Part shown: piece by piece, positions 4,835-31,234 of the stretch
How the letters are laid out: every line of letters begins with the position of its first letter
How positions within the stretch are numbered: the stretch's first letter is position 1
Translations under genes and position numbers: made by a program
Notes under the pieces: model-generated
What the model was told of the DNA's origin: nothing
What the model saw: the letters and a program-made list of their open reading frames with translations, nothing else
Database searches by the model: none
Assembly: GCA_041659785.1 (NCBI GenBank)
Contig: JBAZXO010000002.1
Coordinates: 55,479 to 119,478 of the forward strand
DNA length: 64,000 bases
From: Minisyncoccota bacterium
Lineage (GTDB): Bacteria; Patescibacteriota; Minisyncoccia; Phycocordibacterales; UBA9973
Direction: 5' to 3'

Positions 4835-4838
4835 AATG

Positions 4839-4909: not shown

Positions 4910-4965
4910 CCTTCGCTAAAGCTTCGGCGGGCAAGCCCGCTTCAACTTAAAGCTAACACAGCATA

Positions 4966-5394: not shown

Positions 5395-5620
5395 ATAATA
5401 AGTTTCACATGGAACATAGTCTAATTGTGTTTCACGTGAAACGTTTAGCTAAATTTTTGTGTCTTTTATAAAAATATCCTTATTTTATAAGGTTTTATTG
5501 ACAAAAATAGACTTAAAAGACAACTTTTTTTACTGTCCTTTATAAACAGTACCCACATAGTTATCCACATATTTCAATAAAATCCTTGTGTTGCAAAGCT
5601 TTACTAAAGGACAGATTTTG

Positions 5621-5691
5621 TGCGGCTAGGGAGAATCGAACTCCCGTCTCATCCTTGGCAAGGACGTGTTCTACCACTAAACCATAACCGC
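5621..5691 (-). tRNA. tRNA-Gly (anticodon GCC)
   Basis: Acceptor GCGGTTA/TAGCCGC, anticodon stem CGTCC/GGATG with loop TTGCCAA, T-loop GGGAGTTCGATTCTCCC. The 71-aa ORF 5561..5776 overlying it is spurious. Confidence 0.85.
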
Positions 5692-5852
5692 AATAGTATT
5701 TTATAATTTTTTTCGTTTTTAAATTAAAAAATACTATATGATTATAGTATTTTATTGAAACTAATGCAATTGCCATATTAGCTTATAAAATAAGCATTAT
5801 TTGCCAATATTCCAATAATAGTGTAAAATATTGATATTATTAAATTAATTAT

Positions 5853-5924
5853 GCACCCGTAGTGAAATGGATATCACAACAGTCTTCGGAACTGTCGTTG
5901 GGGGTTCGAATCCCTCCGGGTGCA
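5853..5924 (+). tRNA. tRNA-Arg (anticodon TCG)
   Basis: Acceptor GCACCCG/CGGGTGC, D-stem GTGA/TCAC, anticodon stem ACAGT/ACTGT with loop CTTCGGA, T-loop GGGGGTTCGAATCCCTC. Confidence 0.85.
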
Positions 5925-15314: not shown

Positions 15315-16913
15315 TTATACTGCAGATAATTCTATGTGGAAAGTAGAGCCTTTTCCTGCACCTTCAGACTCGGCGGAGACTGTGCCTTTGTGAGCCTCTA
15401 TTATTAGTTTTACAGTATAAAGTCCATAGCCAGTGCTGTCCACATTTATCCTTACAGAATCTTTACCTCGTCCGCCTTCGGTAAATAGATTTTGTTTATC
15501 TTCTTCTGTAATACCTATGCCTGAGTCTTTAACTGAAAGTTTAATTTTTCCATTACCGTCTTCGAGTTTTACTAATATGGTTCCTTCTTTTGTATATTTG
15601 ATAGAGTTTTCAATTAAATTATTTACCGCTTCTTTGAGCCAGAATATATCACCATTTGTATTATAAATGCCGTCTTTAATATCTGTCTCTATTTTGAGTC
15701 CTTTTGCTTCAGCTCCAATTTTCTTTTCCTCAACAGTTTTTATGACGATGTCTTTGAAATCAACAACCTTCATATCATATTTGATAATTCCATTTTGCAA
15801 ATTAGCCACATTTAAGACTAAATCAACCGTCTGTATGCCGTTGTTGTCGAATTCTAGACCTTGTTCAGCTCTCTTTTTAATTTCAGGAGTTATTGGCCCA
15901 AATGTTCCATCTAGTATTCCAGCGAAGAGGAACTTGGTACGGGTAAACGATCCTTTAACCTTATGAGTGACAAGGTGAACCAGACTTTCCCTTTGCTTGA
16001 TTGAAAGCTGAAGTTCCATATTTAGTTTAGCCAATTTTTCCTTTTGTTCTACTTCTCTAAGAACGCTTCTGATCAAATTAATACCAAAAATAAGTACTAG
16101 TAAGAATATGCTACTTCTGAAAATAATAAGTACTAATGAATCCGCAAATATTATTTCTAGAAACAAAACTATAGATAATAAAAAAACTAAAATTGAAGTT
16201 GAAAAAACTTTTATATTAAAAAGTCGATTATATAATATCGCATAAGTTGTTAAAATAACAAATGGGAAAGTAAACAAGGCTCCAAAAGGTAAGTATTTTG
16301 AATTTTCAAAAACAGCAGGAAGTATAAAGTTGAAAGTTATAATCATCCCAAACATTAGAGCTGTTCCAATAAGTATTTTAATATATGCTCTGATGAGCTG
16401 TTTGTTTTTTGCACGATGAAGATTTCTTATAAATATAAACAAAGCTGAGAACACTAATGCTATACTCACCATTCCAAAAAGGGGAATAGCTGGACCATTG
16501 GTTATTTTTGTTATATTGCCTGCAGCTGACACCTCTTTTATTTTAGAAAGAACCAAGGGTGATGCTGATATGGCTGCTGTTAGTAATACAAATGGTATTA
16601 AAAAGTATTTAAATACTTTAGGAAAAATTATCGTTGCGTTTGGAAAAACATAAAAGAGTTGAAAAATAGAAAAAGCTTGCAGTATAGCCAAAAACATAAC
16701 TAACCTTAATAATAGAAATGCAACATTGGAATCTGTAAGTCTATATCCAAAAAAGTTTACCAATCCCCATACTCCAGTAATTAAAGAGAATAAAAGAAAT
16801 GACTTGTTCGTAATACTTTTTCTGTCAGTAAAAAATATAGTAAAACCAAGAACAAAAGTTCCTGCCACCGCTACAGCAACTGACAGTATGTCTAAATTTT
16901 CTATTACGTTCAT
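15315..16913 (-). CDS. Sensor histidine kinase with a multi-TM N-terminus; no adjacent response regulator
   Basis: H-box LVTHKVKGSFTR. HATPase_c with N, G1 and G2 boxes (NLIENSIKYT, DSGIGI, GYGLY). Confidence 0.8.
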   Translation of the reverse strand: MNVIENLDILSVAVAVAGTFVLGFTIFFTDRKSITNKSFLLFSLITGVWGLVNFFGYRLTDSNVAFLLLRLVMFLAILQAFSIFQLFYVFPNATIIFPKVFKYFLIPFVLLTAAISASPLVLSKIKEVSAAGNITKITNGPAIPLFGMVSIALVFSALFIFIRNLHRAKNKQLIRAYIKILIGTALMFGMIITFNFILPAVFENSKYLPFGALFTFPFVILTTYAILYNRLFNIKVFSTSILVFLLSIVLFLEIIFADSLVLIIFRSSIFLLVLIFGINLIRSVLREVEQKEKLAKLNMELQLSIKQRESLVHLVTHKVKGSFTRTKFLFAGILDGTFGPITPEIKKRAEQGLEFDNNGIQTVDLVLNVANLQNGIIKYDMKVVDFKDIVIKTVEEKKIGAEAKGLKIETDIKDGIYNTNGDIFWLKEAVNNLIENSIKYTKEGTILVKLEDGNGKIKLSVKDSGIGITEEDKQNLFTEGGRGKDSVRINVDSTGYGLYTVKLIIEAHKGTVSAESEGAGKGSTFHIELSAV

Positions 16914-16938
16914 AGCTTATATTATTATAACTTAATAT

Positions 16939-18003
16939 TTATATATTTTCTATTATCGGTTCTTTCCTACTACTGCGAGCTGACGGGTCTTTTGCATGAC
17001 CAATACGAAACATCATTAAAGGTGTTTCATCTGAATCTAGATTGAATGTTGAAAAAGTATCTTGATAAGATTTAAGTGCCATATTTATATGTTTATTCTT
17101 CAGTGTTTGATCATTTGGATTACTTTTTAATTTAAAACCTAAAAATAAAATGGCAGAGATCGGTTGAAACGCAAGACCTAATGATGTTGTTTTAAGCCAT
17201 ATTTCCTGCATTTTCATTCCAAGTTTAACAAAATTTTCCGGAGATATTTTTTTTAAAGTTAATAATCCTATAGCCGAACCACTGGAATACAGGGTAGCAT
17301 CTTGCTTTGCAATAAAATACGGCAGACCTATTTTTATCGCAATACGCATTAATGTTTTATTGCTTGCAAGTTTAAAAAGAAATTGTTGTATAGGATTAAA
17401 TTCCATGGTCTTTATATAAAGACCATGACGCTCTCTTCTTTCTTGTTCAGTAGACCACATGACGTCTTTAAAAAGATATTCATGCAGTAATTTATTTTCT
17501 AAAATAATTATTTCAGCTGAACTACCTATTATTCCAGCCTGTTTTTTTTCTTTTGGGTCAATTATGAAATGCAAGATTACGTCTTCAAAAGCCCTTGCTT
17601 CTTTTAAAAGTACATTTTCTTCTTCAGAAAGTGGGTTATTTTTATAAGGACGCCTATTCGTTGCACGTTTTGAGATAAATTCAAACAACGGATCAACCTG
17701 TTGTGCCGAAGATGCTTCTTCAAAAGATATTTCTGCTATTAGATTAGAGTCGTTTGGTGTTGGGAATAATTTTATTTTTGATATTAAGCCTATTTTAGAA
17801 GAAGCTATCTCTATGTTTTTTAGAAGAGCTCCGTGAGCAATCAAAGAACCGCTCTGCATAAAATTTAAATACGGGTTATCTTTGTCTGGAAGATTATATA
17901 TTTTAAGTTTTGTACCAGAGAGAACAAATTTCCATGGTTGGGAATTATCACCCGAGGGGGCCATTACTCCATATTTTAATATTTCTTTTATTTTTTTATC
18001 CAT
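16939..18003 (-). CDS. Nitroreductase-superfamily protein (two-lobed, SagB/McbC-like size)
   Basis: APSGDNSQPWKF near the N-terminus and a second RATNRRPY-type motif mid-protein. The length of 354 aa suggests a tandem nitroreductase fold. Confidence 0.55.
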   Translation of the reverse strand: MDKKIKEILKYGVMAPSGDNSQPWKFVLSGTKLKIYNLPDKDNPYLNFMQSGSLIAHGALLKNIEIASSKIGLISKIKLFPTPNDSNLIAEISFEEASSAQQVDPLFEFISKRATNRRPYKNNPLSEEENVLLKEARAFEDVILHFIIDPKEKKQAGIIGSSAEIIILENKLLHEYLFKDVMWSTEQERRERHGLYIKTMEFNPIQQFLFKLASNKTLMRIAIKIGLPYFIAKQDATLYSSGSAIGLLTLKKISPENFVKLGMKMQEIWLKTTSLGLAFQPISAILFLGFKLKSNPNDQTLKNKHINMALKSYQDTFSTFNLDSDETPLMMFRIGHAKDPSARSSRKEPIIENI

Positions 18004-19493
18004 TTTTGTTTTGTTCCAGATTTAAAGTGTTCCGAACTTCCATTTTTCCAAAGTATAACCGAAACATGTGCTCTAGGTCCAAATTTATTTATTGTTTCTT
18101 TGTACTCTGAATGTGTTTCAATGAGTTGTTTATGGATAATTTCTTTTGTTTCCTTTGAAATTTTTTCTGAAGGGGTTATACCCTTTTTAAGTTCTACGTG
18201 AACGATAAGATTAGGTTCTTGTCTTTCAGAAAAACTAGATTCAAGTGTAAATTTTCCGGTAACTTTTTTCTGTATGTTCCCCTCAAGAAGAATTTTCCTT
18301 ATAGGACCAGGATATACTTGAAAAGCGTAATAACTTACAGAGAAATCACTTCTTTCAAAAACATATACAAAAGGTAACTCCCAAATACTTTTTTGTATAT
18401 TGTTTTTTTTTGCTTCTTTTAAAAGATCAATGTTAAACTTTTTAAACAGAGATTTCATTTCATTAAAACCAATAATATTGCCTTTATCTTCTAGGTTATA
18501 TCTCACAAGAGGAATCGCACTTTCACTAGTGCAGATAAGGTTATTATCAATTGATTCAAAATAAAATAATTCTGGTAAATACTGAGTTAATGTTGGTGTT
18601 TTTATAATATCGCCAAATATCTTTTTATATAAAGTTTTGTTTTTTTCAGCCAATTTTCTTATCAAAATACAAATGGGTGTTTCATACGACATGGTACCAA
18701 GGTCAACGGTGCCATAGTGATTAAGGGTGTCTAAAAAAATATTTTTACTTCCGACGATATTGCCAATATAGTCCCGAAATGATTCAGGAAATGCTTCTGC
18801 TGAGAATATAAATTTTATATTATATTTTTTCCAATTAATTTTTTCATGTAATCCAGTATCAAGGATATCTTTGGTAAATGGACCATATGATCCAATAATT
18901 ATTTGGTCATAATATTGACCCATTTTTTCTATTGTCTTTATTATTGAAGAAGTATCAATACCTGTGGTTATGATACTTAAAGGATATTGTGACTCCCTGG
19001 CAATTCGTGTGATCACTTCATATGTGAAAACCCCACCAATCCAAGGCCCCATAGGAAATGCGTCAATATATAAGGTTTTTTTCTTATGAATACTAAAATT
19101 AGTTCTTAAGTAAAGCTCAGCGTAGAGCTGATATTGTTCGTCTTGCGTTTCTGTTCGAGGAAAATAAAATGGTTCTCCTGTTGATCCAGATGTCACAGAA
19201 AAAACACGAGGGAGATGAGTCAATTTATTTTTTATAAAAAGTTTTTCAAAAGGATAAGAACACAAATAATTATTTTTACTTAATGTTGGCAACTTTTCAA
19301 AATCTTGTACCGTTTTTACGGTGGGGATTTTACTATTTTGTTTTTTATAAAAATCTATATATGCTGGAACTTGTTTTGTTTCATTGAAACGTTTCAATAC
19401 AACTTTCCCTCCACGCTTAATCCAGAAAGATTCTTTTTTAATTTTAAGTAATTTTTCTAATTCAAGAACTTTTTTATGAATGGAATGCTTCAT
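17988..19493 (-). CDS. PaaK/F390-synthetase-like adenylate-forming enzyme (phenylacetate-CoA ligase family)
   Basis: TSGSTGEPFYFP matches the (S/T)SG(S/T)TGxP AMP-binding motif. Overlaps the downstream gene by 16 nt. Confidence 0.65.
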   Translation of the reverse strand: MKHSIHKKVLELEKLLKIKKESFWIKRGGKVVLKRFNETKQVPAYIDFYKKQNSKIPTVKTVQDFEKLPTLSKNNYLCSYPFEKLFIKNKLTHLPRVFSVTSGSTGEPFYFPRTETQDEQYQLYAELYLRTNFSIHKKKTLYIDAFPMGPWIGGVFTYEVITRIARESQYPLSIITTGIDTSSIIKTIEKMGQYYDQIIIGSYGPFTKDILDTGLHEKINWKKYNIKFIFSAEAFPESFRDYIGNIVGSKNIFLDTLNHYGTVDLGTMSYETPICILIRKLAEKNKTLYKKIFGDIIKTPTLTQYLPELFYFESIDNNLICTSESAIPLVRYNLEDKGNIIGFNEMKSLFKKFNIDLLKEAKKNNIQKSIWELPFVYVFERSDFSVSYYAFQVYPGPIRKILLEGNIQKKVTGKFTLESSFSERQEPNLIVHVELKKGITPSEKISKETKEIIHKQLIETHSEYKETINKFGPRAHVSVILWKNGSSEHFKSGTKQKWIKK

Positions 19494-19509
19494 GAGAACT
19501 TATTATTTG

Positions 19510-20565
19510 TTAATTTTTTAATTTATTTATAATTTTTTCCGCCATCCTGTCTGCAACTCTGGCAGGAGATATTTTTTCTTTGTCACTCCCTTCCATTATC
19601 TTTTCCAATGTTTTCTTTATTTTTTTAACCTTTCCTTCTATTCTATCTGCATCAAAATTTTTATTTTCATATTCATCTACCACGCTTATCAGGCCTCCAG
19701 CATTTACCACATAGTCTGGACCATAAAATATACCTTTTTCATATATTTTGTCGGCAATATCCTTACTCTCAAGTTGGTTGTTCGCAGAACCCGTTATTAT
19801 TTTACAATTCAATTCCCCAATAGTTTTTTTATTTAGAGCGTATGAAAGTGCACATGGCATATAGACATCAACTTTCTGTTTTTGAATTTTATCCGGAGCT
19901 ACTATCTTTACTTTTGGGAAAAGTTTTTGTATAAATTTTAATCGATCAATATTTGTGTCTGATATATAAATTTTCCCTGCATTTTTATAAACTATTTTTA
20001 AAAATTCATGGCCAACTTTCCCTACTCCCTGTATGGCAAACGTTCTGTCTTTAAAACTTTCATTTCCAAATATTTTTTTGCAAGCTACTTCAATAGAGAA
20101 AAATAATCCGACGGCCGTATATTTTTCTGGATTTGATTTTAATCCGACAAAATACTCACTTTCTCTTTTCATTTTCTTTAAATCAGTCAAATCTAGCCCC
20201 ACATCTGTACCAGTTATAAATTTACCAGAAAGTTCATTTAATTTTTGCGCATACGCTTTTAAGATTTTGTCTTTTGGAAATTCATCATTTCTTATAATTA
20301 CAGCTTTTGCTCCACCGTATTTAAAGCCAGCCATGGCGCTTTTATAAGACATTAATCTAGAAAGTCGAAGTGCGTCCCTGAGGGCATCATCTTCAGTTTT
20401 ATATTCTAAAAAGCGAGTTGCACCGAAAGAGGGGACTCTTTTTTGGTTTTTGTGAAAAGCAATAAAACCCTTTAAACCTGTTGCTTCGTCATCTAAACGA
20501 AAAACTGATTGGTGATTATCAAATTCTGTAAATTTTTCTAATAGTTTATTTTCTATTTGATTCAT
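19510..20565 (-). CDS. Glu/Leu/Phe/Val-type amino acid dehydrogenase
   Basis: N-terminal substrate domain with the AGFKYGGAKAVII catalytic-Lys region. C-terminal Rossmann fold (FAIQGVGKVGHEF). Confidence 0.75.
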   Translation of the reverse strand: MNQIENKLLEKFTEFDNHQSVFRLDDEATGLKGFIAFHKNQKRVPSFGATRFLEYKTEDDALRDALRLSRLMSYKSAMAGFKYGGAKAVIIRNDEFPKDKILKAYAQKLNELSGKFITGTDVGLDLTDLKKMKRESEYFVGLKSNPEKYTAVGLFFSIEVACKKIFGNESFKDRTFAIQGVGKVGHEFLKIVYKNAGKIYISDTNIDRLKFIQKLFPKVKIVAPDKIQKQKVDVYMPCALSYALNKKTIGELNCKIITGSANNQLESKDIADKIYEKGIFYGPDYVVNAGGLISVVDEYENKNFDADRIEGKVKKIKKTLEKIMEGSDKEKISPARVADRMAEKIINKLKN

Positions 20566-21614
20566 AATACGAATATATTTTTTACTATATATTTATTATT
20601 GTCTTCTTTGTTTATAATTTTTTTAAGCATCACTGTCGCGACTACTCCACCTAAAATGGCAGCAGAGCCAAGCTGAGACCATGATACCAATTCTTTTTTT
20701 AATACTTTTTCAACTGATCTTAATGTTCTTGGGTCAATATTTTTAATACCACCGACGATGTCGTTCATTATAACATTTCCCATCATCTCCATGCTTGGAG
20801 GCTGTGAAAGAATATTTTTCCAATATGAGATATCTTTATCAAATATTTTTTTATATCCTAAGTCATATCGTTCTACATGCAGGACCACTCCGTCACCATT
20901 GTCGGTAATCATAATCACTGGTACTTTGTATTTAATTGCGAGCTCTCTGGCCTCTATTTTGAAAGGTAAACTATCTACTTCCTCTATTATTAAATCAATT
21001 TTCTTTGCCTTTAAGAGTTTTTCAATGTTTTCTTTAGAAGCACCATCAGGTAAAGTTGTTACTTTTGCAAAAGGATTATCCTCATAGATTCTTCTTGCTG
21101 CTATGATTGTCTTATTTAATCCAATTTGGTGTGCTCCCGCTATTATTCTATTTAAATTTGTTGTATCAAGATCGTCAAAATCAGCAATGATAATTTCGTT
21201 TGAAATACCAGCTTGAGTGAGAACAAGAGAAATATTGCTTCCTACACTCATGCCGAAAACAGCTACTTTTGTGTTTCGTAGTCTTTCTTGCTCTTCTTTT
21301 GTTATAAGGTCTCTATTTCTGTTAGTCTTTAATTCTAAGTAGTCTTCTTTTTTTACTGTTTTTACAAGAGAAAAATTCCATGGATAAAATACGTATGTGT
21401 ATTTATTTTCCATCTTTTTTGAAAAATTTGTGAATTCTTTAGTTTTATATCCTTCTGTTTTCTTTGGGCCAGCGTATAGAGGATTTTTAATTATGAAAAG
21501 TTCTTTAAGTTGATGAGAAAAAGCATCTACAAAATTGATGTGTTTTTGCTTCATCAATTTTTCAGCTTCTTTTTTATTCAGTATCTTAGGCCTGTATTCG
21601 TTTTTTTGTTCCAT
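20562..21614 (-). CDS. ThiF/MoeB/E1-like adenylyltransferase with an ~110-aa N-terminal extension
   Basis: VAVFGMSVGSNISLVLTQAGISNEIIIADFDDLDTTNLNRI fits the E1 Rossmann and DxD...NLNRQ pattern. 4-nt overlap with the dehydrogenase gene. Confidence 0.6.
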   Translation of the reverse strand: MEQKNEYRPKILNKKEAEKLMKQKHINFVDAFSHQLKELFIIKNPLYAGPKKTEGYKTKEFTNFSKKMENKYTYVFYPWNFSLVKTVKKEDYLELKTNRNRDLITKEEQERLRNTKVAVFGMSVGSNISLVLTQAGISNEIIIADFDDLDTTNLNRIIAGAHQIGLNKTIIAARRIYEDNPFAKVTTLPDGASKENIEKLLKAKKIDLIIEEVDSLPFKIEARELAIKYKVPVIMITDNGDGVVLHVERYDLGYKKIFDKDISYWKNILSQPPSMEMMGNVIMNDIVGGIKNIDPRTLRSVEKVLKKELVSWSQLGSAAILGGVVATVMLKKIINKEDNNKYIVKNIFVL

Positions 21615-21695: not shown

Positions 21696-22253
21696 TTATT
21701 GATTATTCTTTAGCCACACCATACTGTCGTAGCCGATTAGTATTCTATCCTCATCTTTTATCCCCAATTTTTTTAGAAAATCAAATAGTTCTTTTTGTAC
21801 CTTTTCTCCATCTTCTTCTGACATTTTTTCTACTTCTATAAATGAACCTAGATCATCTACTTCATCAAGGCAAATCTCATAATCATTATATTTACCCCGG
21901 CGTCTCTTTTTATGAACTTCTACTGTTTTTTTGAAATCAAGCAGTTCTATTATTTCTTCTAATTTATTTTTATCACTGACATCAACTTCTTTTTCAATGC
22001 AATCAAGTTCGTTGCTACGATTCTTTTTTAATGTAAAAGTAATTCTTCCATTTTGCTCTCGTATTCTTAAAACTGGAGTACCATGATTGTGGTCCTTAGG
22101 ATTTATTCCTTTTTTGTTATATACACAATCATCTTGAGCGACTGGTTGATTTAAAATACAACCAATTTCTTCTAATTTAGAAATTATACTATCAAGATCT
22201 TTTACCTTAGCTTTTACTTCTATTTCGTTTTTCATATCATTAAAGTATAACAA
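21696..22253 (-). CDS. CYTH-domain protein (CyaB/thiamine-triphosphatase-like)
   Basis: N-terminal EIEVKAKV matches the CYTH ExExK signature. 185 aa. Confidence 0.65.
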   Translation of the reverse strand: MLYFNDMKNEIEVKAKVKDLDSIISKLEEIGCILNQPVAQDDCVYNKKGINPKDHNHGTPVLRIREQNGRITFTLKKNRSNELDCIEKEVDVSDKNKLEEIIELLDFKKTVEVHKKRRRGKYNDYEICLDEVDDLGSFIEVEKMSEEDGEKVQKELFDFLKKLGIKDEDRILIGYDSMVWLKNNQ

Positions 22254-22297
22254 AATTTAGTTTAAAATAATTATTATTTTTTTGTATTTATCTTGAG

Positions 22298-22328
22298 GGT
22301 TGACAAGGCACAAAAGGTATTCTAATAT
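22298..22328 (+). promoter_or_regulatory. Strong sigma70-like promoter (TTGACA-17-TAATAT) for the peptide/radical-SAM locus
   Basis: Read directly. Confidence 0.45.
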
Positions 22329-22403
22329 TTTAACAAGCCTTATTCTTTGACATAAAACAAAAAAGTCCTACTTTTTTGTTGCCATTTGGGTCAATAAAGT
22401 TAA

Positions 22404-22428
22404 TTGAAAATCCATAATGGATTTTCAA
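22404..22428. promoter_or_regulatory. Perfect 12-1-12 palindrome ttgaaaatccat-a-atggattttcaa; operator-like site
   Basis: Read directly. It lies between the promoter and the first mini-ORF. Confidence 0.35.
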
Positions 22429-22474
22429 CCCAACTGACAGCAGAAGATTATAGGCAAGAAAGGAGGAAAATATC

Positions 22475-22555
22475 ATGCGATGCAAAACCAAGAAGTCGAC
22501 GAAGAAGCGTATCAGGGTCCGTATTGGCAAAGGCAGTTGCAGCATCTGCGACTAG
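22475..22555 (+). CDS. Mini-ORF A, 26 aa, MRCKTKKSTKKRIRVRIGKGSCSICD. Candidate leader or precursor peptide
   Basis: Perfect AGGAGG sits 8 nt upstream of the ATG. Cys3 and a C-terminal CSIC motif. GC-rich codons. The 88-aa track ORF from 22480 is an alternative reading through the G10 tract. Confidence 0.35.
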   Translation: MRCKTKKSTKKRIRVRIGKGSCSICD

Positions 22556-22567
22556 TCTGTCGAAAAC

Positions 22568-22608
22568 CTGAGGGGGGGGGGATACTGCGTATCCGCCCCC
22601 TCTTTTTA
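22568..22608 (+). terminator. Hairpin holding a G10 homopolymer (gagggggggggggata-ctgcg-tatccgccccctc) followed by TCTTTTT; terminator/attenuator-like
   Basis: Inverted repeat and T-run read directly. Ten consecutive G at 22572..22581. Confidence 0.45.
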
Positions 22609-22620
22609 AAAGAGGACAAT

Positions 22621-22746
22621 ATGAAGATCAAGAGAAATCTTTCAAAAAAAATTTGTAGGTTTTTCTTTAAAATTGGGAAATTCCTAATTTATCTACCTAG
22701 AGGATTTCCAGTAGATTCTTACATTACTGGTATTTTCAACATATAA
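22621..22746 (+). CDS. Mini-ORF B, 42 aa, MKIKRNLSKKICRFFFKIGKFLIYLPRGFPVDSYITGIFNI. Candidate precursor peptide
   Basis: AGAGGA RBS 5 nt before the ATG. It ends 15 nt before the radical-SAM gene. Confidence 0.35.
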   Translation: MKIKRNLSKKICRFFFKIGKFLIYLPRGFPVDSYITGIFNI

Positions 22747-22761
22747 GGAAAGGACATCGCC

Positions 22762-23841
22762 ATGGAATGTAATTCTGAAATTCCTCGCCTAGAAGTTGAA
22801 ACTGAAGATGCAATTTACGAGATTGAATTCGGACAAGTTCAGATCGAGATTACTGGTCGATGCAACATGAGCTGTTTGCACTGCAGAGCTGCCAATCAAC
22901 TTAAGCAAGATATGCCAGTCGAACAAATTGCTAAAATCATTAAATTCGCTCGGCAGTTTAGTCCAAACTACAAAGAAATTATACTTTCTGGTGGTGAACC
23001 GCTTATGCACCATGATTTTGCTAAGGTGTTGAGACGGGTTCATGATAGCGGTGGTGAATTCATCACTTTAACGACTAACGGTTCACTGCTCACCGATGAA
23101 CACCTTTCACTTATTAGCAAACTTTCTTTTCAGCGTTTTGTTCTTTCTGTGAGTCTAGACAATCTCAACCCCACGAAGCACGACAAGTTTCGTGTTTACA
23201 ACGGAGCATTTACCAAGGCTATTTCTGCTTTACGTCGGGTGGCGGAAAGTAATTTACCAAACGTTATTGCTTCAATGCGATCCACTATTCAGGCTTCCCA
23301 GATTAATGAAATGGAAAGCATGGTGGATTTTGCAAAAAATCTTGGGTGCAAGCGAGTTAGCTTCTCAGCAATACATCCAGCTGGAAGAGCTATCGAGCGT
23401 AACGACCTTTGGATGACCCGTGAACAAAAACGGGAATTTGTAAAAGAGGTTTATCGGCTCAAGGAATTGTTTCCTGATCTTAACGTTACAACGAACGATC
23501 CGCTTAAGTGTTTACTTCGTCAGAAGAATGATTTAGGAAAAGAAGGGGAATTAGTTTTTGATGGTTGTGGCGCTGCTGCTATTACCTTCAACGTTAATTC
23601 CAACGGCACAATGACTCCGTGCGCCTTGCTCGATATTCCGATGATGAATGTTTTCCCTCTTTCTATCGAAGAGATGAACGAGCATTATCAACAAAGTCCA
23701 ATTGTCAGAAGCATGTTGGATATGAACCTTAAGGGTAAATGTGGTGCATGCCACATGAAATATCAATGTGGGGGATGTCGTGCTCGTGCTTTAATCCAGA
23801 ATGGGGATTTTTTAGGGGAGGATCCTCATTGCTGGCTATAA
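22762..23841 (+). CDS. Radical SAM enzyme with a C-terminal SPASM/twitch domain (peptide-modifying-maturase type)
   Basis: CNMSCLHC is a CX3CX2C cluster. GGEPLM. C-terminal Cys cluster CGAAAITF...PCALL...CGACHMKYQCGGCRARA. The gene is GC-richer than its flanks. Confidence 0.85.
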   Translation: MECNSEIPRLEVETEDAIYEIEFGQVQIEITGRCNMSCLHCRAANQLKQDMPVEQIAKIIKFARQFSPNYKEIILSGGEPLMHHDFAKVLRRVHDSGGEFITLTTNGSLLTDEHLSLISKLSFQRFVLSVSLDNLNPTKHDKFRVYNGAFTKAISALRRVAESNLPNVIASMRSTIQASQINEMESMVDFAKNLGCKRVSFSAIHPAGRAIERNDLWMTREQKREFVKEVYRLKELFPDLNVTTNDPLKCLLRQKNDLGKEGELVFDGCGAAAITFNVNSNGTMTPCALLDIPMMNVFPLSIEEMNEHYQQSPIVRSMLDMNLKGKCGACHMKYQCGGCRARALIQNGDFLGEDPHCWL

Positions 23842-23864
23842 TGACCTACACCTCGAAACAATCA

Positions 23865-23908
23865 AACCGCTTTTCAACGAGAACCGTTAGGAGGGCGGTT
23901 TTCTTTTT
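23865..23908 (+). terminator. Hairpin (aaaccgc...gcggttt) plus T-run after the radical-SAM gene
   Basis: Read directly. Confidence 0.4.
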
Positions 23909-23920
23909 ATATAACCTTTT

Positions 23921-24403
23921 TTGTTATACAATAAAATCATGAATACTTATTTGAAAAAATTTATAGATGGAAAATTTAAAAAACCAGGCAAAGCCCTAGA
24001 CTTAGGAGCTGGTGATTTTTTTGATGTTGCTTGTTTAAAACAATTAGGGTGGAAAAGTGAAGGCGTTGATATAAAAATGGGTATTAATTTGGAAAAAACT
24101 TACGAATCAAAAAATAAACCTTTTGACTTGGTTTATTCAAATTATGTACTACATAAGCTAAAAAATAAAAAACAATTCATTCAAACAATTTTTAATAATT
24201 TAAAAAATGAAGGATGGTTTTTTATTCATACCTTTGATCAATCTGATAAAAATAGTAAATCTAATTTATCACGAATTTATTTAAAAAAACTATTATCCGA
24301 ACAAGGATTAAAAAATATTAAAATAAAATTATTTAGTTTTTATGATAATGATGAGGGGCACAAACATTGGCATAAAATTTTAGAAGCAACGGGGCAAAAA
24401 TAG
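23921..24403 (+). CDS. Class I SAM-dependent methyltransferase (small, very AT-rich)
   Basis: Motif I ALDLGAGDFFDVACL. 160 aa. Confidence 0.6.
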   Translation: MLYNKIMNTYLKKFIDGKFKKPGKALDLGAGDFFDVACLKQLGWKSEGVDIKMGINLEKTYESKNKPFDLVYSNYVLHKLKNKKQFIQTIFNNLKNEGWFFIHTFDQSDKNSKSNLSRIYLKKLLSEQGLKNIKIKLFSFYDNDEGHKHWHKILEATGQK

Positions 24404-24414
24404 ACAGCCATTTT

Positions 24415-25491
24415 TTATTTTATCTTCTCAATTTTTTCCCAAGGGAGATTTGGTTTTCCGAAGTGGCCATAGGTGGATGTTTGGCTGTATATTGGGTTGC
24501 GAAGGCCGAGAGTTTCGATGATTGCAAGTGGTTTGAAATCGAAATTTTTGCGAACGATTTCTGCCAAGTTTTCTCCTTTTTCATTAATTGCTTCTATCAT
24601 TAATGGTTCAGCCATACCTATGGCATAAGCTACAGATACGAGCACCTCTTTACCATAACCACCCGCAACGAGGCTTTTCGCAACAAAGCGAGCCATATAG
24701 GCGCCTGAACGGTCTACCTTTGTGGCATCTTTTCCTGAGAAACATCCACCACCGTGGGGGATGAGTCCTCCATAAGTATCTACCATTATTTTTCTTCCCG
24801 TTAATCCTGTATCTGCCTCGAAACCACCTTGGATAAATTTTCCCGTAGGGTTTACCAATATCTTCACCACACTTTTTTCCTCAGAAGAAAGAAGAGGATT
24901 TATTATTTTTTCAGTAATTTCTTTTTTAATTTCTTCTAACGTCACTTCTGGTGTGTGTTGCGTACTTACAAGTACGGTATTCAGTTCGCCGTTCGTATAA
25001 GTGACTTGTGTTTTGCCATCTGGGCGCAACCATTCTATTCTTTTAGTCTCATCTGCACTGTTCCTCAATTCTTCTAAACGTTTTGCAAGTTTGTGTGCGA
25101 GCACTACACCCTTAGGTAAAAATTCTGGAGTTTCATCTGTAGCAAAGCCGTACATTATTCCTTGGTCTCCAGCTCCGCCTGTATCTACGCCTTGAGCGAT
25201 GTCAGGGGATTGGGTGACGATATGTGCAGAGATCTCGAGTTCGTCTGTGTAGCCAATTTTTCTATAAACATCACGAGCAATTTTTATATAATCTACTTTT
25301 CCCGTCGAGGTGACTTCTCCACCAATCACAAGCTTGCCATGGCCACCAAAGGTTTCCACAGCCACACGACTCTTTGGGTCTAAAGTTAAATATGCATCTA
25401 AAATAGCATCTGATATTTGGTCACAGATTTTGTCCGGATGGCCTCCCGTGACGCTCTCGACTGTGTAGTTGTCATTGTGTTTGTAAAACAT
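24415..25491 (-). CDS. metK: S-adenosylmethionine synthetase
   Basis: GGHPDKICDQISDAILDAYL and GGAGDQGIMYGFA signatures. Confidence 0.9.
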   Translation of the reverse strand: MFYKHNDNYTVESVTGGHPDKICDQISDAILDAYLTLDPKSRVAVETFGGHGKLVIGGEVTSTGKVDYIKIARDVYRKIGYTDELEISAHIVTQSPDIAQGVDTGGAGDQGIMYGFATDETPEFLPKGVVLAHKLAKRLEELRNSADETKRIEWLRPDGKTQVTYTNGELNTVLVSTQHTPEVTLEEIKKEITEKIINPLLSSEEKSVVKILVNPTGKFIQGGFEADTGLTGRKIMVDTYGGLIPHGGGCFSGKDATKVDRSGAYMARFVAKSLVAGGYGKEVLVSVAYAIGMAEPLMIEAINEKGENLAEIVRKNFDFKPLAIIETLGLRNPIYSQTSTYGHFGKPNLPWEKIEKIK

Positions 25492-25548
25492 TAACTGACT
25501 ATATCACTATAGTGGATAAAAATAAAACTGATATAATGTAGTTTACAT

Positions 25549-26109
25549 ATGAACATTGAAGTTGAGATAAAAGTAAAAATAGATAATTTTGAAGAAATAA
25601 AGGAAAAGGTTTCCAAACTCGGGAGGCTTGTAAAAGCAGTAAAACAGATAGACGAATATTATGTACCAATACATAGGGATTTCTTTGATCACAAGCCACG
25701 GCCTGTAGAACATTTAAGAATAAGGACCAATCCTGATAAAACTGTTTTTGAATATACTAGAACGATAGGATTGCAAGCAGGTGGAGATTATGATTACGCA
25801 GAAGAGTATGAGACAGGTATTTCTAACGTGGAAGAATTCAAGAAGACTTTGGAATTTTTGGATTTTAAAAAAGTTGTGATTGTGGAAAAAGAAAGAGAGT
25901 ACTGGATGTGCGGAGGGATAGAAGTCGCACTCGATAAAGTGAAGGACTTAGGAACATTTATGGAAGCAGAAGCAAAAGGAGATTTTAAGGATGAAAAAGA
26001 AGCCAAGCAGGCCTGCATAGATTTTTTAGAAAATCTTGGAATTAAAGATGTTGAAAATACGCAAATAAGGCACGGTTATCCGCAATTCTTTTTAGAAAAG
26101 AAAAGTTAA
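25549..26109 (+). CDS. CYTH-domain protein, a paralog of the one at 21696..22253
   Basis: MNIEVEIKVKIDN ExExK motif. C-terminal acidic motifs. Confidence 0.65.
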   Translation: MNIEVEIKVKIDNFEEIKEKVSKLGRLVKAVKQIDEYYVPIHRDFFDHKPRPVEHLRIRTNPDKTVFEYTRTIGLQAGGDYDYAEEYETGISNVEEFKKTLEFLDFKKVVIVEKEREYWMCGGIEVALDKVKDLGTFMEAEAKGDFKDEKEAKQACIDFLENLGIKDVENTQIRHGYPQFFLEKKS

Positions 26110-26208
26110 TTTTTTGTTCCAAGTGTCGGACACCTGGGAATTATTGATCCATAAAAACATAAATTGATGAGTTTTTAGAGTCTTTGTAAATAAGTTATAC
26201 TGTTTTAT

Positions 26209-26706
26209 ATGAATATTATAGAAAAATACAAAGGAAAAAGCGGAGTTGATTATATTTTTGAATATTCAGATGCGGATTCTTTTGATGATTTAAATAAAAC
26301 AAAATGTACACAAGTATATGCGGTGTGCTTTTGTAATGGGAAAATGGTGATAGTTTTAAATGTACATAGTAAAACGTGGGGACTTGTTGGAGGAACTATT
26401 GAAAAAGGAGAAAGTTTTGAGGAAACCCTAAAGAGAGAAATACAAGAAGAATCAAACATGGAAGTTGTTTCATTTTTACCAGTTGGATACCAAAAAGTCA
26501 TAGATACTCGAAATAGTGATGTTGTATATCAGCTTCGTTATCTTTGCACCGCAAAACCATACGGTGAATTTATTTCAGATCCAGCAGGGCATGTTACAGA
26601 AATTAAGTTGATTGACCCCAAAGATTACAAACAATATTTTGATTGGGGAGAAATAGGTGAACGTATTATAAGAAGAGCAGAAGAATTATTGGTTAAATCA
26701 GTATAA
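26209..26706 (+). CDS. Nudix hydrolase
   Basis: Nudix box GGTIEKGESFEETLKREIQEESNME. Confidence 0.8.
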   Translation: MNIIEKYKGKSGVDYIFEYSDADSFDDLNKTKCTQVYAVCFCNGKMVIVLNVHSKTWGLVGGTIEKGESFEETLKREIQEESNMEVVSFLPVGYQKVIDTRNSDVVYQLRYLCTAKPYGEFISDPAGHVTEIKLIDPKDYKQYFDWGEIGERIIRRAEELLVKSV

Positions 26707-26712
26707 TATTTT

Positions 26713-27129
26713 ATGAAAAAATTTTACTCGGTTATTGTAAATAGTGTAATTGTAAACGATGAAGGCAAGGTATTAATTGCTCAAAGAAGTCCAGATGAAG
26801 GTCATGAAGGGGGGAAATGGAGCATTCCTGGTGGAAAGATAGAATCTGTGGGCGAAGAGCATGATGTTTTAATAAAAAATATTAAAAAAGAAATTCTTGA
26901 AGAAGTGGGGGTTGAAATATTTGATGATATCGTTTTAGTCCATGATAATACTTTTACTAGAAGTAACGGTGATGATGTTTTGGCTTTGATATTCGTGTGT
27001 AGGTATAAATCAGGAGAAGCGAAGCCATTAGAAGATACAATCGACGTAAAATGGATAAGAAAAGGTGAAGTTGATAATTATGAATTTCCTCCTAACGTGA
27101 AAGAATACGTGTTAAAAGGTTTTAAATAA
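26713..27129 (+). CDS. Nudix hydrolase
   Basis: Nudix box GGKIESVGEEHDVLIKNIKKEILEEVGVE. Confidence 0.8.
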   Translation: MKKFYSVIVNSVIVNDEGKVLIAQRSPDEGHEGGKWSIPGGKIESVGEEHDVLIKNIKKEILEEVGVEIFDDIVLVHDNTFTRSNGDDVLALIFVCRYKSGEAKPLEDTIDVKWIRKGEVDNYEFPPNVKEYVLKGFK

Positions 27130-27136
27130 TTTACCT

Positions 27137-27580
27137 TTAGTTTATTTTTTGTAAATAATTCACGATTGTTGTTCGTCCTTTTGGATTAAAGCCATCATTA
27201 TATTCTCCGTCTGAGATGTAATCATTTTTTGATACCCAGCGCCATTCTGAAAATTTTTCTGGCTCCATGAGTTTAGCATCTTCTTTTGTTGTACAAAAAA
27301 ATATGAAGATGGTGTCATTTTCTGTTACTGCTGGAACTTCTCCAATATAATCAATTATTTCGAATTCAGTAATGCCGACTTCTTCTTGCACCTCTCTTTT
27401 TAAGGTATCCTTTAGGGTTTCTCCGTCTTCACATCTACCACCTGGAATAGTCCAGACAGAAATATCTTTCCATTTATCTTTTGTGTAATTACGATAGCCA
27501 GTTAGTATTTTTTCATCCCGCATTATCACCGCTAAAGCAACTTTATTTTTATTTCCTATTTCTTTTAATTTTGTTTCCAT
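27137..27580 (-). CDS. Nudix hydrolase
   Basis: Nudix box GGRCEDGETLKDTLKREVQEEVGI. Confidence 0.8.
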   Translation of the reverse strand: METKLKEIGNKNKVALAVIMRDEKILTGYRNYTKDKWKDISVWTIPGGRCEDGETLKDTLKREVQEEVGITEFEIIDYIGEVPAVTENDTIFIFFCTTKEDAKLMEPEKFSEWRWVSKNDYISDGEYNDGFNPKGRTTIVNYLQKIN

Positions 27581-27584
27581 AATT

Positions 27585-28022
27585 TTATTTCAAAAAAATC
27601 CACCTTTTCATTAATTTATTTGCCTCTTTGGTGAATTCTTCTGGGTCTAGGTTATATTTTTTAGCGATAAATTTTAATTTTTCTATCTTTTTAGGATTAC
27701 GGACTTCCTTTAGTTTTGCATTTTTGTCTATTTTCTTTCCTAGGGTTCTATAAAATCCATAACGCAAAGAATATTTGGGGAACATATACAAAAGTCCAAT
27801 ATAAAAATCAATTTTTTTGAGTGGATATTTTATATCAGTGTGTCCAGACCAATGTGCTCGGGTGTAAGTATATGTAACGTCCGACAATTCACTCCATTTA
27901 TTTATTAATCCCTTAGCTTCTTCTAACTCCCTCAGCTCTTCTAAAACATCAGCTAGGTGCCAATAGTAATCCTTTTTCGGCATATCTAATATTGAGTGCC
28001 AATAGTTAATTATTTTTTTCAT
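27585..28022 (-). CDS. Hypothetical protein
   Basis: 145-aa ORF 5 nt downstream of the Nudix gene on the same strand. No motif recognised. Confidence 0.45.
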   Translation of the reverse strand: MKKIINYWHSILDMPKKDYYWHLADVLEELRELEEAKGLINKWSELSDVTYTYTRAHWSGHTDIKYPLKKIDFYIGLLYMFPKYSLRYGFYRTLGKKIDKNAKLKEVRNPKKIEKLKFIAKKYNLDPEEFTKEANKLMKRWIFLK

Positions 28023-28069
28023 AATATAGATATTGGTATTTTATCATAAAAATCAATAAAACTGATATA

Positions 28070-28585
28070 ATGGTAAAGACAATGATTAATTCACAAATTG
28101 AAACAACTGCAGAAATAAATAATTTAATTAAAGATATCAAATACCCAATTACTTTAAGTACGCTTATTCAATTAAGAGACTTAATATATTCAAAAATTAA
28201 AATACACACATATGATGATTCCACAAAAGAGCATGAAAAATCAATAAGATGGAAAAGAACAGCTGCTGAAATCATCAAAGATGGATATGTATATAGTGGT
28301 AAGGCTTGTACAGATTTAACTGTACTATTTATCGCTTTATGCAGAGCACTTGGACTAGATACAAATTTTGTGAAAGTTAAAAAAGAAAATTCAGTTCATT
28401 CTGTTGCAGAAATAAAATTAGATAATGGTTGGTACATTTTTGATGTTTCAAATATAAACAATATTCCAATAAACGGGATCATCACAGAGAATACACCATA
28501 TAAAGATTGGCAGTTATGGAAAAAAGGAAGAGATGCTTGGGATTTAGGGCTTAGTGAGCTTAAAGATATTGATAAGATTTTTTAA
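28070..28585 (+). CDS. Transglutaminase-like cysteine-protease-fold protein
   Basis: GKACTDLTVLFIALCRALG (Cys), HSVAEIKLDNGWYIFD (His/Asp), arranged as in the TGase core. Confidence 0.55.
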   Translation: MVKTMINSQIETTAEINNLIKDIKYPITLSTLIQLRDLIYSKIKIHTYDDSTKEHEKSIRWKRTAAEIIKDGYVYSGKACTDLTVLFIALCRALGLDTNFVKVKKENSVHSVAEIKLDNGWYIFDVSNINNIPINGIITENTPYKDWQLWKKGRDAWDLGLSELKDIDKIF

Positions 28586-28594
28586 ATTAAGTGT

Positions 28595-28677
28595 GCGAGC
28601 TTGCCCGGTTAGTAGAACTTGGCAATGCGCAAAGCGCGTCTTTTAAAGACTTTGCCAAGTCTCACTACCGGGCTTGC
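28595..28677. other. Long imperfect inverted repeat (~27-nt arms) enclosing two small GC hairpins (gcgc-aaa-gcgc; gtcttt-taa-agac); structured RNA or terminator
   Basis: Read directly. Confidence 0.3.
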
Positions 28678-28790
28678 TACAAAAAATTAACATGCTATGA
28701 TGAACTAGTTAAAAGTTATCAAGTTCCTAAAGTTATAAAGAGAAATACTTTACAAACTTTATAACATTATAAACTTTAAGAACTAAATTC

Positions 28791-29147
28791 ATGTTAGATA
28801 AGAAAAAAATTAAAGAGAAATTAGAAAAAGAGAGAGACCTTTTATTAGAACAGATGAAAGGTATGGGTAAATTTGATAAAGAAACAGGTGAATGGGAAAC
28901 TACGCCTGAGGAATTGGAGTTTCCAGAGTCAGATGAGAATGATAAAGCTGACCGCTTTGAAGACTTTGAAGCAAGAACTTCCACAATGAGAACCCTTGAA
29001 CCTAGACTTAATAATATTTTGAAGGCTTTGAAAGGAATAAACAGAGAGTCATTCGGTAAATGTGAAGTTTGTAAAAAGGATATTGAGATGACCCGCTTGG
29101 AAGCAAATCCCGCTGCCCGAACCTGTAAAAAACATTTAGAAAGTTAA
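28791..29147 (+). CDS. DksA/TraR-family C4 zinc-finger protein
   Basis: Coiled-coil N-terminus. C-terminal CEVCKKDI...ARTCKKH zinc ribbon. Confidence 0.7.
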   Translation: MLDKKKIKEKLEKERDLLLEQMKGMGKFDKETGEWETTPEELEFPESDENDKADRFEDFEARTSTMRTLEPRLNNILKALKGINRESFGKCEVCKKDIEMTRLEANPAARTCKKHLES

Positions 29148-29150
29148 CAT

Positions 29151-29243
29151 AATCACAAAAATTCAAAAAATTTTGGCGCCTTCGCCCTCGGAGACATAGT
29201 GCAGGTGACCCACGACGCTTTAAATTTTTTAATTTTTGTGATT
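29151..29243. repeat. Palindromic element (TIRs aatcacaaaaattcaaaaaatttt and aaattttttaatttttgtgatt) with a GC-rich core ggcgccttcgccctcggagaca...
   Basis: Read directly. The aaaatttt termini and the ccctcgg core resemble family A. Confidence 0.35.
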
Positions 29244-29257
29244 TAAAAGCAATCATT

Positions 29258-30877: not shown

Positions 30878-30896
30878 GTTATCCACAGGTAGTGTG

Positions 30897-30926
30897 TTGA
30901 CAGGTGAACGCTCGTTCACTTATACT
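30897..30926 (+). promoter_or_regulatory. lexA-operon promoter (TTGACA-17-TATACT) with a Cheo-type LexA box tGAACgctcGTTCa (30905..30918) in the spacer
   Basis: Read directly; the GAAC-N4-GTTC palindrome is perfect. Confidence 0.6.
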
Positions 30927-30944
30927 ATTTAGGTAGGTCGTTTA

Positions 30945-31005
30945 AATACCCCTACCCAGCCTCCCCCTATGTAGGGGGAGGTGCCAAAGGCGGAGGGGGA
31001 AAATT
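30945..31005. repeat. Family-B GC palindromic element (aatacccc...cctccccctatgtagggggagg...tgccaaaggcggagggggaaaatt) in the 5' UTR of the lexA operon
   Basis: The 22-nt perfect hairpin at 30960..30981 is identical to 58957..58978. Confidence 0.5.
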
Positions 31006-31027
31006 ATTAAAGTAAATTAAAAATTTT

Positions 31028-31234
31028 ATGTCACAATCACAATATTTAAAAATGTTAGAAAGGGAGATACAAAAGATCAATAAGAAAATTGACTTAAAGA
31101 TTTTAGAAGGAGCAAAGTATGCCAAAGAGGCTAGAGAGCATAAATTACTCTTGAGGAAAGTTCGTTATCATACTAGAAGGAGTTTCTTTAGTAGATTTTT
31201 TCCCACATTTTTTAACTCCAGACTTCAATTCTAA
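31028..31234 (+). CDS. Small hypothetical protein (68 aa, C-terminal hydrophobic/aromatic tail) co-transcribed with lexA
   Basis: Its stop abuts the lexA start (31234/31235). It is the first gene behind the LexA-box promoter. Confidence 0.45.
   Translation: MSQSQYLKMLEREIQKINKKIDLKILEGAKYAKEAREHKLLLRKVRYHTRRSFFSRFFPTFFNSRLQF

Follow-up and report, generated by a model that had tools for sequence, protein, structure and literature searches.

A cassette conserved across Patescibacteria as a candidate oxazolone-type pathway coupled to a two-component sensor

Bacteria of the candidate phyla radiation (CPR), or Patescibacteria, account for a large share of bacterial diversity, and with their tiny genomes and little biosynthesis most of them appear to rely on other cells. 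Next to nothing is known of how they sense their partners or one another. A compact operon of a Minisyncoccota bacterium raises a question in this setting: what would a ThiF-like protein, an amino-acid dehydrogenase, a PaaK-fold ligase and a nitroreductase-family flavoenzyme make together, and why should a membrane sensor histidine kinase follow them? The operon lies on the minus strand, at 15315-21614, of a stretch of 64,000 nucleotides (contig JBAZXO010000002.1, positions 55,479 to 119,478, of assembly GCA_041659785.1) that constitutes the window analysed here. The same cassette recurs throughout Patescibacteria/CPR, in many of their classes, and the operon is one copy of it. Judging from the homology of its enzymes, it is on balance probable that the cassette turns an N-acylated amino acid with an aromatic or bulky side chain into a derivative of oxazolone (azlactone) type and that a two-component sensor dedicated to it is coupled to this synthesis, and it offers a testable candidate for communication or host interaction in these organisms.

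A cassette shared by candidate-phyla genomes

Five open reading frames (ORFs) make up the operon, with the coordinates and the tight minus-strand packing that a first-pass annotation of this DNA had described. In the order of transcription, they encode the ThiF-like protein (20562-21614, 350 residues), the dehydrogenase (19510-20565, 351 residues), the ligase (17988-19493, 501 residues), a two-lobed nitroreductase-family flavoenzyme (NTR; 16939-18003, 354 residues) and a multi-pass membrane sensor histidine kinase (15315-16913, 532 residues). The ThiF and dehydrogenase genes overlap by 4 nucleotides and the ligase and NTR genes by 16 (ATGGATAAAAAAATAA, read directly in the sequence), while spacers of 16 and 25 nucleotides separate the dehydrogenase from the ligase and NTR from the kinase. 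Both overlaps (20565/20562 and 18003/17988) are as the first-pass annotation gave them, and its gap of 26 nucleotides before the kinase is corrected to 25. Its family assignments, including the nitroreductase and E1-like calls, hold in profile or fold search: the ThiF-like protein matches PF00899 (82 bits), the dehydrogenase both the N- and C-terminal ELFV_dehydrog domains, NTR PF00881 and the kinase HATPase_c (78 bits).

The cassette has a G+C content of 30-32%, against 36-39% in the flanks. Because the DNA is rich in AT, a promoter and terminator scan was uninformative (45 promoter-like sites where 35 would be expected) and does not settle the 5' boundary of the operon, which may or may not take in the upstream CYTH gene; this gene is not conserved with the cassette. 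At gathering level, an Rfam scan of the whole window returned only four tRNAs, none near the operon, and these form a cluster at 4764-5924.

Is this arrangement peculiar to one genome? Eighty loci from different species were fetched, and their components were identified by iterated hidden Markov model searches on six-frame ORFs and counted in those 54 loci whose sequence extends at least 4 kb upstream and at least 5 kb downstream of the ligase. All 54 of these species-representative loci come from candidate-phyla-type metagenome-assembled genomes. The ligase and the ThiF protein are present in every one of them, a kinase with a homologous multi-pass membrane domain in 51, NTR in 42, a receiver-only response regulator in 32, the dehydrogenase in 30, a class I/II aminotransferase in 21 and a serine hydrolase, drawn from two families, in 14. 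Within the cassettes the median gap between genes is 2 nucleotides, and 240 of 258 gaps measure 100 nucleotides or less. Since the same genes recur together in 80 loci, the arrangement is far beyond chance, and synteny in CPR relatives is strongly confirmed.

Moreover, gene fusions tie the enzymes together and thus argue that they belong to one pathway. The dehydrogenase is fused to the ligase in P0143, and dehydrogenase, ligase and ThiF form one protein of 1242 residues in P0186; ligase and ThiF are joined in this order in P0030 and L023 and in the reverse order in P0197. Fusions of ThiF to NTR are found in several loci (e.g., L002, L026, L029, L036, L046, L067 and L074), those of NTR to a hydrolase (NTR~ABH) in five, and one of ThiF to a hydrolase (ThiF~ABH) in L048. 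A serine-hydrolase-like gene of about 265 residues with a GMSGG motif, which the window lacks, stands between NTR and the kinase in three relatives (L009:7575-8375, L010:10208-11017 and L027:12630-13412).

No cultivated carrier, such as TM7x/Nanosynbacter, was found among the named matches. Records titled 'uncultured Gammaproteobacteria' or 'Polyangiaceae' carry typical CPR-type cassettes (L011, L013, L015, L026, L029, L036, L047, L060, L062, L082 and L086), one of them being a 938-kb 'chromosome', and the genomes are probably CPR genomes whose record titles cannot be relied on for taxonomy.

Enzymes and their predicted chemistry

The clearest indication of what the cassette might make comes from the ThiF-like protein and NTR. 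The former scores 220 bits over positions 14-324 of the 722-position NCBIfam model of the Rv1355c family, against at most 68 bits for ordinary ThiF/MoeB/TcdA models, and the latter matches positions 375-713 of the same Rv1355c model with 183 bits, as well as the C-terminal half of PRK14851 with 197 bits. Because each protein matches one half of the same 722-residue model, the two genes are an Rv1355c-type fusion protein split into its halves. A fused ThiF-NTR homologue from Roizmanbacteria matches positions 11-645 of 722 with 381.5 bits and clears the Acg-family cut-off at 229 bits; NTR itself scores 137 bits against the Acg family, over positions 2-275 of 319. By these scores, the CPR proteins represent a clade related to Rv1355c and not its equivalog.

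Rv1355c is TrzS. Its Mycobacterium smegmatis orthologue was reported in 2025 to cyclise N-acyl tryptophan with adenosine triphosphate (ATP) through the ThiF domain, after which the flavin oxidase domain desaturates the product with O2 to give N-acyl tryptazolone (PMC12856293). OxzB of proteobacteria is likewise a fused oxazolone synthetase (bioRxiv 10.1101/2020.06.11.147165), and TyzB (ThiF) and TyzC (oxidase) of Mycobacterium tuberculosis constitute a split one (PMC10404671). The activities of TrzS, OxzB and TyzB/TyzC have been shown experimentally, and the Rv1355c/TrzS synthetase acts on free N-acyl amino acids (PMC12856293, PMC10404671); the natural oxazolones found so far all derive from Tyr, Phe or Trp (PMC12856293). 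Thus, the pathway that the first-pass annotation called uncharacterised has a characterised relative, oxazolone synthetase, in its ThiF and flavoenzyme pair. The framing of these proteins as peptide-heterocyclisation enzymes does not survive either, as both match the Rv1355c/TrzS halves and neither the ocin-ThiF nor the SagB model gave a match at E<=0.01. That the operon does not follow the layout of a thiazole/oxazole-modified microcin (TOMM) cluster was rightly seen, the YcaO model having no match at E<=0.01 in any cassette protein.

Residue conservation is in keeping with such a chemistry. In 79 cassette homologues, D144xD146, N152-L-N-R155, K167 and D213 of the ThiF-like protein are conserved to at least 95%; D213 sits at the catalytic Asp position of ThiF/MoeB (in the range aligned to 1ZFN) and, as we infer, is the counterpart of D217 in TrzS. 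The window protein contains no cysteine, and E1-type thioester or sulfur-transfer chemistry is therefore disfavoured. Its best solved sequence relative is MccB, the match taking in part of the MccB N-terminal region, and this N-terminal region is common with the small-molecule enzyme TrzS as well, from model position 14 onwards. The ThiF-like protein is predicted to be an ATP-dependent adenylating enzyme that acts as a cyclase. In NTR, the flavin mononucleotide (FMN) motifs A15-P-S, N20, Q22-P-W and R113 are at least 95% conserved in 64 cassette homologues. The only PDB relative found is Acg (2YMV), which has also been reported as the closest structure to the TrzS oxidase domain (PMC12856293). 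NTR is accordingly an Acg/TyzC-type FMN oxidoreductase and a predicted C-alpha/C-beta desaturase. A known anti-phage defence system was considered and rejected, PADLOC giving weak E1-core matches only.

Where would an N-acyl amino acid come from? The characterised oxazolone clusters each hold an acyl-coenzyme A (acyl-CoA) N-acyltransferase, namely OxzA, TyzA or TrzA (PMC12856293, PMC10404671), and in the cassette this slot is taken by the PaaK-fold ligase together with the dehydrogenase or the aminotransferase. The ligase has no Pfam match, and against the PaaK model TIGR02155, whose equivalog cut-off is 646 bits, it reaches 21.9 bits (E 5e-5) over the N-terminal region only. Its AlphaFold (AF2) model (predicted local distance difference test score, pLDDT, 84; predicted template-modelling score, pTM, 0.85) retrieves BT_0428, PaaK1/2 and then ClxA in Foldseek, with E about 1e-20 and TM-scores of 0.67/0.77. 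The P-loop T101-SGSTGEP and the C-terminal G493-x-K495 are invariant among the cassette homologues. The protein thus modelled appears to be a divergent PaaK-fold adenylate-forming enzyme, from a family in which over 1,200 close relatives are found, nearly all of them in candidate-phyla genomes; clustered at 50% identity, the family has 749 members at E<=1e-30, and about 130 GTDB species representatives encode it. ClxA and NatL2 are CoA-independent ligases of the PaaK fold, forming an amide and an ester, respectively (PMC9400959, PMC12519233, PMC7204872). Because these enzymes couple acyl-adenylates to nucleophiles other than CoA, the cassette ligase probably forms an N-acyl amino acid directly with ATP, independently of CoA, and so would stand in for the N-acyltransferase.

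A PaaK-like ligase beside an amino-acid dehydrogenase also recalls phenylalanine and phenylacetate catabolism, and public annotations do label the ligase 'phenylacetate-CoA ligase'. Could the operon therefore serve a catabolic or housekeeping role, converting an aromatic amino acid through arylpyruvate to arylacetyl-CoA, or activating a sulfur carrier or protein in the manner of E1? This is most unlikely. Neither a decarboxylase or oxidoreductase nor downstream paa genes accompany the operon, and the ligase scores some 22 bits where 646 are required of a PaaK equivalog. The cysteine-free ThiF protein has no thioester or persulfide site and no CxxC zinc site, and there is no ThiS/MoaD-like gene. 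Further, the fusions to ThiF and NTR and the near-constant kinase would be left unexplained.

The dehydrogenase itself scores 278 bits against the ScyB tryptophan dehydrogenase (TrpDH) model and matches leucine dehydrogenases (LeuDH) and TrpDH in the PDB with E 1e-61 to 1e-66. Its pocket segments, F46-G-A-T-R, ITG119TDVG and GGL292ISV, correspond to MGATR, ITGQDVN and GGLINV in TrpDH 5B37 and to LGGTR, ITAEDVG and GGVINV in LeuDH; the pocket residues, conserved in 41 cassette homologues, agree with 5B37 and not with LeuDH. The enzyme is predicted to be a dehydrogenase of hydrophobic or aromatic amino acids, dependent on nicotinamide adenine dinucleotide (phosphate), NAD(P), with a pocket like that of TrpDH or phenylalanine dehydrogenase (PheDH), and an aromatic or bulky substrate would follow from this TrpDH-like pocket.

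In other lineages the place of the dehydrogenase is filled by the class I/II aminotransferase (PF00155). One or the other, never both, is found in 51 of the 54 well-flanked loci, and among the 83 distinct loci the dehydrogenase occurs in 43 and the aminotransferase in 30 with no co-occurrence. The dehydrogenase gene stands directly upstream of the ligase and the aminotransferase gene divergently upstream. That two unrelated enzymes fill one slot argues that the reaction between an amino acid and its 2-oxo acid is integral to the pathway, and the earlier suggestion that the dehydrogenase handles such a pair gains support from this displacement. CPR organisms are assumed to obtain amino acids by scavenging, and a dedicated dehydrogenase is then easier to explain as a producer of oxo acid. 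Although the sequence is compatible with both directions, we lean towards an oxo acid that is consumed, possibly as acyl donor, rather than an amino acid that is supplied as acceptor.

From the observed gene content, homology, motifs, synteny, fusions and displacement of dehydrogenase by aminotransferase, a scheme can be inferred, in which the chemical steps and substrates, the direction in which the dehydrogenase works and the part played by the kinase are all inferred. First, the dehydrogenase (in other lineages the aminotransferase) would interconvert an aromatic or bulky L-amino acid and its 2-oxo acid. The ligase would then adenylate a carboxylic acid, possibly that very 2-oxo acid, and couple it to the amine of the amino acid to yield an N-acyl amino acid. 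The ThiF-like enzyme would adenylate the carboxylate of this intermediate so that the amide oxygen closes a 5(4H)-oxazolone ring, and the two-lobed flavoenzyme would desaturate the C-alpha/C-beta bond. In some relatives only, a serine hydrolase may open or transfer the ring. Finally, the kinase would either sense the hydrophobic, labile product or control its production on another cue.

Might the same enzymes form a different ring? The ligase could make a dipeptide or pseudo-dipeptide, the ThiF protein close a six-membered ring (a diketopiperazine or a related structure) and NTR act as a cyclic-dipeptide oxidase. AlbA, a subunit of cyclic-dipeptide oxidase, is likewise a flavoprotein of the nitroreductase family and introduces C-alpha/C-beta double bonds. 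It would also fit that the two ATP-dependent carboxylate activations, by ligase and ThiF, are universal in the cassette and NTR is not, and cyclic dipeptides have been cited as signals (PMC12856293). Nonetheless, the closest characterised relatives of the ThiF and NTR pair form and desaturate oxazolones, the dedicated dehydrogenase or aminotransferase argues for a 2-oxo acid substrate and not for a second free amino acid, and no homology to cyclodipeptide synthases was seen; we regard this alternative as improbable.

Sensor kinase and signalling

Why, then, does a histidine kinase follow the enzymes? The window kinase consists of about eight hydrophobic membrane helices with short loops, followed by a dimerisation and histidine phosphotransfer (DHp) helix with His317 and the HATPase_c domain, and by hydropathy it has no sizeable extracytoplasmic domain. 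H317 and the N and G boxes are conserved in 71 homologues. The Pfam HisKA_7TM model does not match the window kinase even at E<=1; iterated searches within the fetched loci show its membrane domain to be homologous to that of the other cassettes' kinases, and the kinase of the Roizmanbacteria cassette does match HisKA_7TM. In 51 of the 54 loci the kinase gene comes directly after the enzymes, on their downstream side, and L029 and L048 have a tandem duplicate of it. Its homologous sensor domain across loci and its presence in 51 of 54 argue that the kinase belongs to the system; the first-pass annotation had placed it at the tail of the operon, which is correct as to position, but it is not a mere tail gene. 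The response regulators encoded in cassettes are stand-alone receiver domains of 120-135 residues with no DNA-binding output.

Synthase genes for small molecules that adjoin a multi-pass membrane histidine kinase are known from CqsA/CqsS, LuxM/LuxN and PhcB/PhcS. For oxazolones, which are hydrophobic as well as labile (half-life of hours at pH 8), a possible role as signals has been put forward by their discoverers (PMC12856293, bioRxiv 10.1101/2020.06.11.147165). On account of this autoinducer-like gene layout and of the proposal that oxazolones are signals, we tentatively prefer, by analogy, a kinase that senses the product of the pathway, as one half of a synthase-receptor pair, over plain regulation, while regarding it as plausible rather than probable. 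More speculatively still, the cassette may represent a lineage-wide means of communication in CPR bacteria, in which the autoinducer, a labile compound of oxazolone type or an N-acyl dehydroamino acid left by opening of the ring, would be synthesised from scavenged amino and oxo acids with ATP alone and no CoA, and perceived through the co-encoded seven-transmembrane (7TM) kinase and stand-alone receivers. If the signalling reading is true, this would be the first native synthase-receptor circuit defined for ultra-small episymbionts and would provide natural oxazolones with a physiological role.

The same chemistry could, on the other hand, serve another end, with the kinase acting only as the regulator that answers an external cue (host contact, substrate or membrane stress) and the product being an effector, such as an antimicrobial, a membrane-active lipid-like compound or a stress metabolite. 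The adjacency of the kinase in 51 of 54 loci fits regulation equally, and receiver proteins are encoded in 32 of the 54. N-acyl tyrosine derivatives are antimicrobial, and oxazolone production is antibiotic-inducible in proteobacteria (PMC12856293, bioRxiv 10.1101/2020.06.11.147165). Yet a simple transcriptional on-switch would not usually employ bare receivers of 120-135 residues, the kinase gene shares a transcription unit with the enzymes and lies downstream in it, which is how autoinduction loops are arranged, and a sensor that is a bare bundle of membrane helices suits a hydrophobic ligand. An effector of this kind is possible, if rather unlikely.

Several observations weigh against an oxazolone coupled to a dedicated sensor and have to be set beside it. 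NTR falls short of the Acg subfamily cut-off of 199 bits, and both window halves and the fused Roizmanbacteria homologue lie under the Rv1355c equivalog cut-off of 476 bits. An N-acyltransferase of the OxzA/TyzA/TrzA type is absent from the window cassette, and the largest clusters of unassigned neighbour ORFs in the 80 relatives include no recurrent acyltransferase-like family. NTR is missing in 12 of the 54 loci, and on two short contigs an S-adenosylmethionine (SAM) methyltransferase is encoded between ligase and kinase, with no ThiF or NTR there (L006:2095-2628 and L011:2899-3621); because of both variants, an unsaturated oxazolone may not be what the pathway ends in at every locus. The dehydrogenase or aminotransferase step admits more than one role and either direction. 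Desaturation by TrzS and TyzC uses O2 (PMC12856293, PMC10404671), and the hosts here are uncultured, which raises the question of the acceptor and of their exposure to oxygen. As to the sensor, no receiver-domain ORF was detected in the 64-kb window, and the partner of the window kinase must be encoded elsewhere in the genome. Adjacency alone, moreover, cannot separate the sensing of a product from the regulation of an operon.

Neighbouring genes and relation to known systems

Does the surrounding DNA contribute to the pathway? On the ThiF side, a block at about 21696-29250 holds a CYTH gene (21696-22253), a radical S-adenosylmethionine (rSAM)/SPASM gene (22762-23841), a methyltransferase gene (23921-24403), MetK (24415-25491), a second CYTH gene (25549-26109) and two Nudix-like genes (26209-27129). 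L008-L010 are the closest relatives, with ligases 71-78% identical to that of the window; in them the kinase-side flank is syntenic, with a gene for a 290-residue protein and then the PNPase (polynucleotide phosphorylase) gene, and the ThiF side runs straight into homologues of the window genes at 29258-31801. As the flanks join directly in these relatives, the CYTH-rSAM/SPASM-MetK-Nudix block is a lineage-specific insertion beside the cassette, and in the 80 relatives the cassette is found without any of these genes. The link between the operon and the divergent rSAM/SPASM-metK locus that the first-pass annotation drew is thereby lost, and a functional partnership with the rSAM/SPASM-methyltransferase-MetK-CYTH block was rejected as a candidate, the block being an insertion relative to L008-L010.

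Within the block, a G+C-rich hairpin at 22570-22604 (plus strand; 15 bp, -32.3 kcal/mol, z -4.2) is followed by a T-run and has no Rfam match; it may be a terminator or attenuator. A 41-codon ORF at 22621-22746 (plus strand), MKIKRNLSKKICRFFFKIGKFLIYLPRGFPVDSYITGIFNI, preceded by the ribosome-binding-site-like AAAGAGGA, ends 15 nucleotides before the rSAM/SPASM gene and may be a candidate precursor peptide for the rSAM/SPASM maturase. A second ORF weakly similar to the rSAM/SPASM protein lies at 41959-43140 (plus strand; E 1.6e-6 in an iterated search).

These neighbours bear on the earlier view that the operon tailors a ribosomally synthesised and post-translationally modified peptide (RiPP) in TOMM-like fashion, perhaps with the adjoining rSAM/SPASM maturase. 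Besides the rSAM/SPASM gene and the 41-codon ORF nearby, it can draw on the fact that, among solved structures, the ThiF protein is closest in sequence to MccB, a peptide-modifying enzyme. It is nevertheless very improbable. No ocin-ThiF, SagB or YcaO profile matched, TrzS, an enzyme of small molecules, has the ThiF protein's N-terminal region as well, and the rSAM block adjoins the cassette in none of 80 relatives. No conserved small ORF was found alongside the cassette in the relatives' loci, which, together with the tiny gaps, disfavours a ribosomal precursor peptide. RiPP/TOMM machinery was rejected on the same grounds: no profile matches, no room for a precursor gene and all cassette genes otherwise assigned.

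The cassette itself is mosaic. The window ThiF protein is 81% identical to that of L009 and the dehydrogenase 71% identical to that of L020, but only 46% to those of L007/L008, the loci in which ligase, NTR and kinase come closest to the window's (76-79%). Recombination or module exchange within the cassette between CPR lineages is suggested by this pattern.

No prior description of the cassette was found in open-access and bioRxiv full text, and a 2020 survey of CPR quorum-sensing genes names no ThiF, nitroreductase, oxazolone or histidine kinase. If the proposed chemistry is true, oxazolone biosynthesis would extend beyond Proteobacteria and Actinomycetota, with a CoA-independent route to the N-acyl precursor, and a function would be found for a PaaK-fold family of more than 700 clusters that is annotated 'phenylacetate-CoA ligase' and goes unrecognised by Pfam. 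It may also inform the physiological role of oxazolones, including those of M. tuberculosis.

How does the cassette compare with what is known? With TrzAS (Rv1356c-Rv1355c; M. tuberculosis, M. smegmatis and Rhodococcus) it has in common a ThiF-like cyclase together with an Acg-type oxidase, which some CPR relatives also carry as a fusion, and here too an aromatic amino acid is the probable substrate. In contrast, the two halves are separate in the window, with two genes between them; TrzA is lacking, and the ligase with the dehydrogenase or aminotransferase stands instead. The cassette adds a co-conserved 7TM kinase, and its hosts are Patescibacteria, not Actinomycetota. In TyzACB, the tyrazolone pathway (Rv2336-Rv2338c; PMC10404671), the ThiF homologue and the oxidase are separate proteins, as in the window, whereas in OxzAB of Pseudoalteromonas rubra, which likewise combines a ThiF homologue with a nitroreductase-superfamily oxidase, OxzB is fused. 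Both systems consist of two or three genes that include an acyl-CoA N-acyltransferase, and neither has a ligase, a dehydrogenase for amino acids or a sensor kinase of its own. As for the ligase, it shares the two-domain fold, the TSGSTGEP motif and the C-terminal lysine with PaaK1/2, BT_0428, ClxA and NatL2, but at about 14% identity, with roughly 70 residues more and without recognition by Pfam.

Finally, CqsA/CqsS, LuxM/LuxN and PhcB/PhcS have no sequence relationship to the cassette, whose regulators are bare receivers. The layout is nevertheless alike, their kinases too are without a large extracytoplasmic domain, and the methyltransferase in the cassette variants L006 and L011 recalls PhcB.

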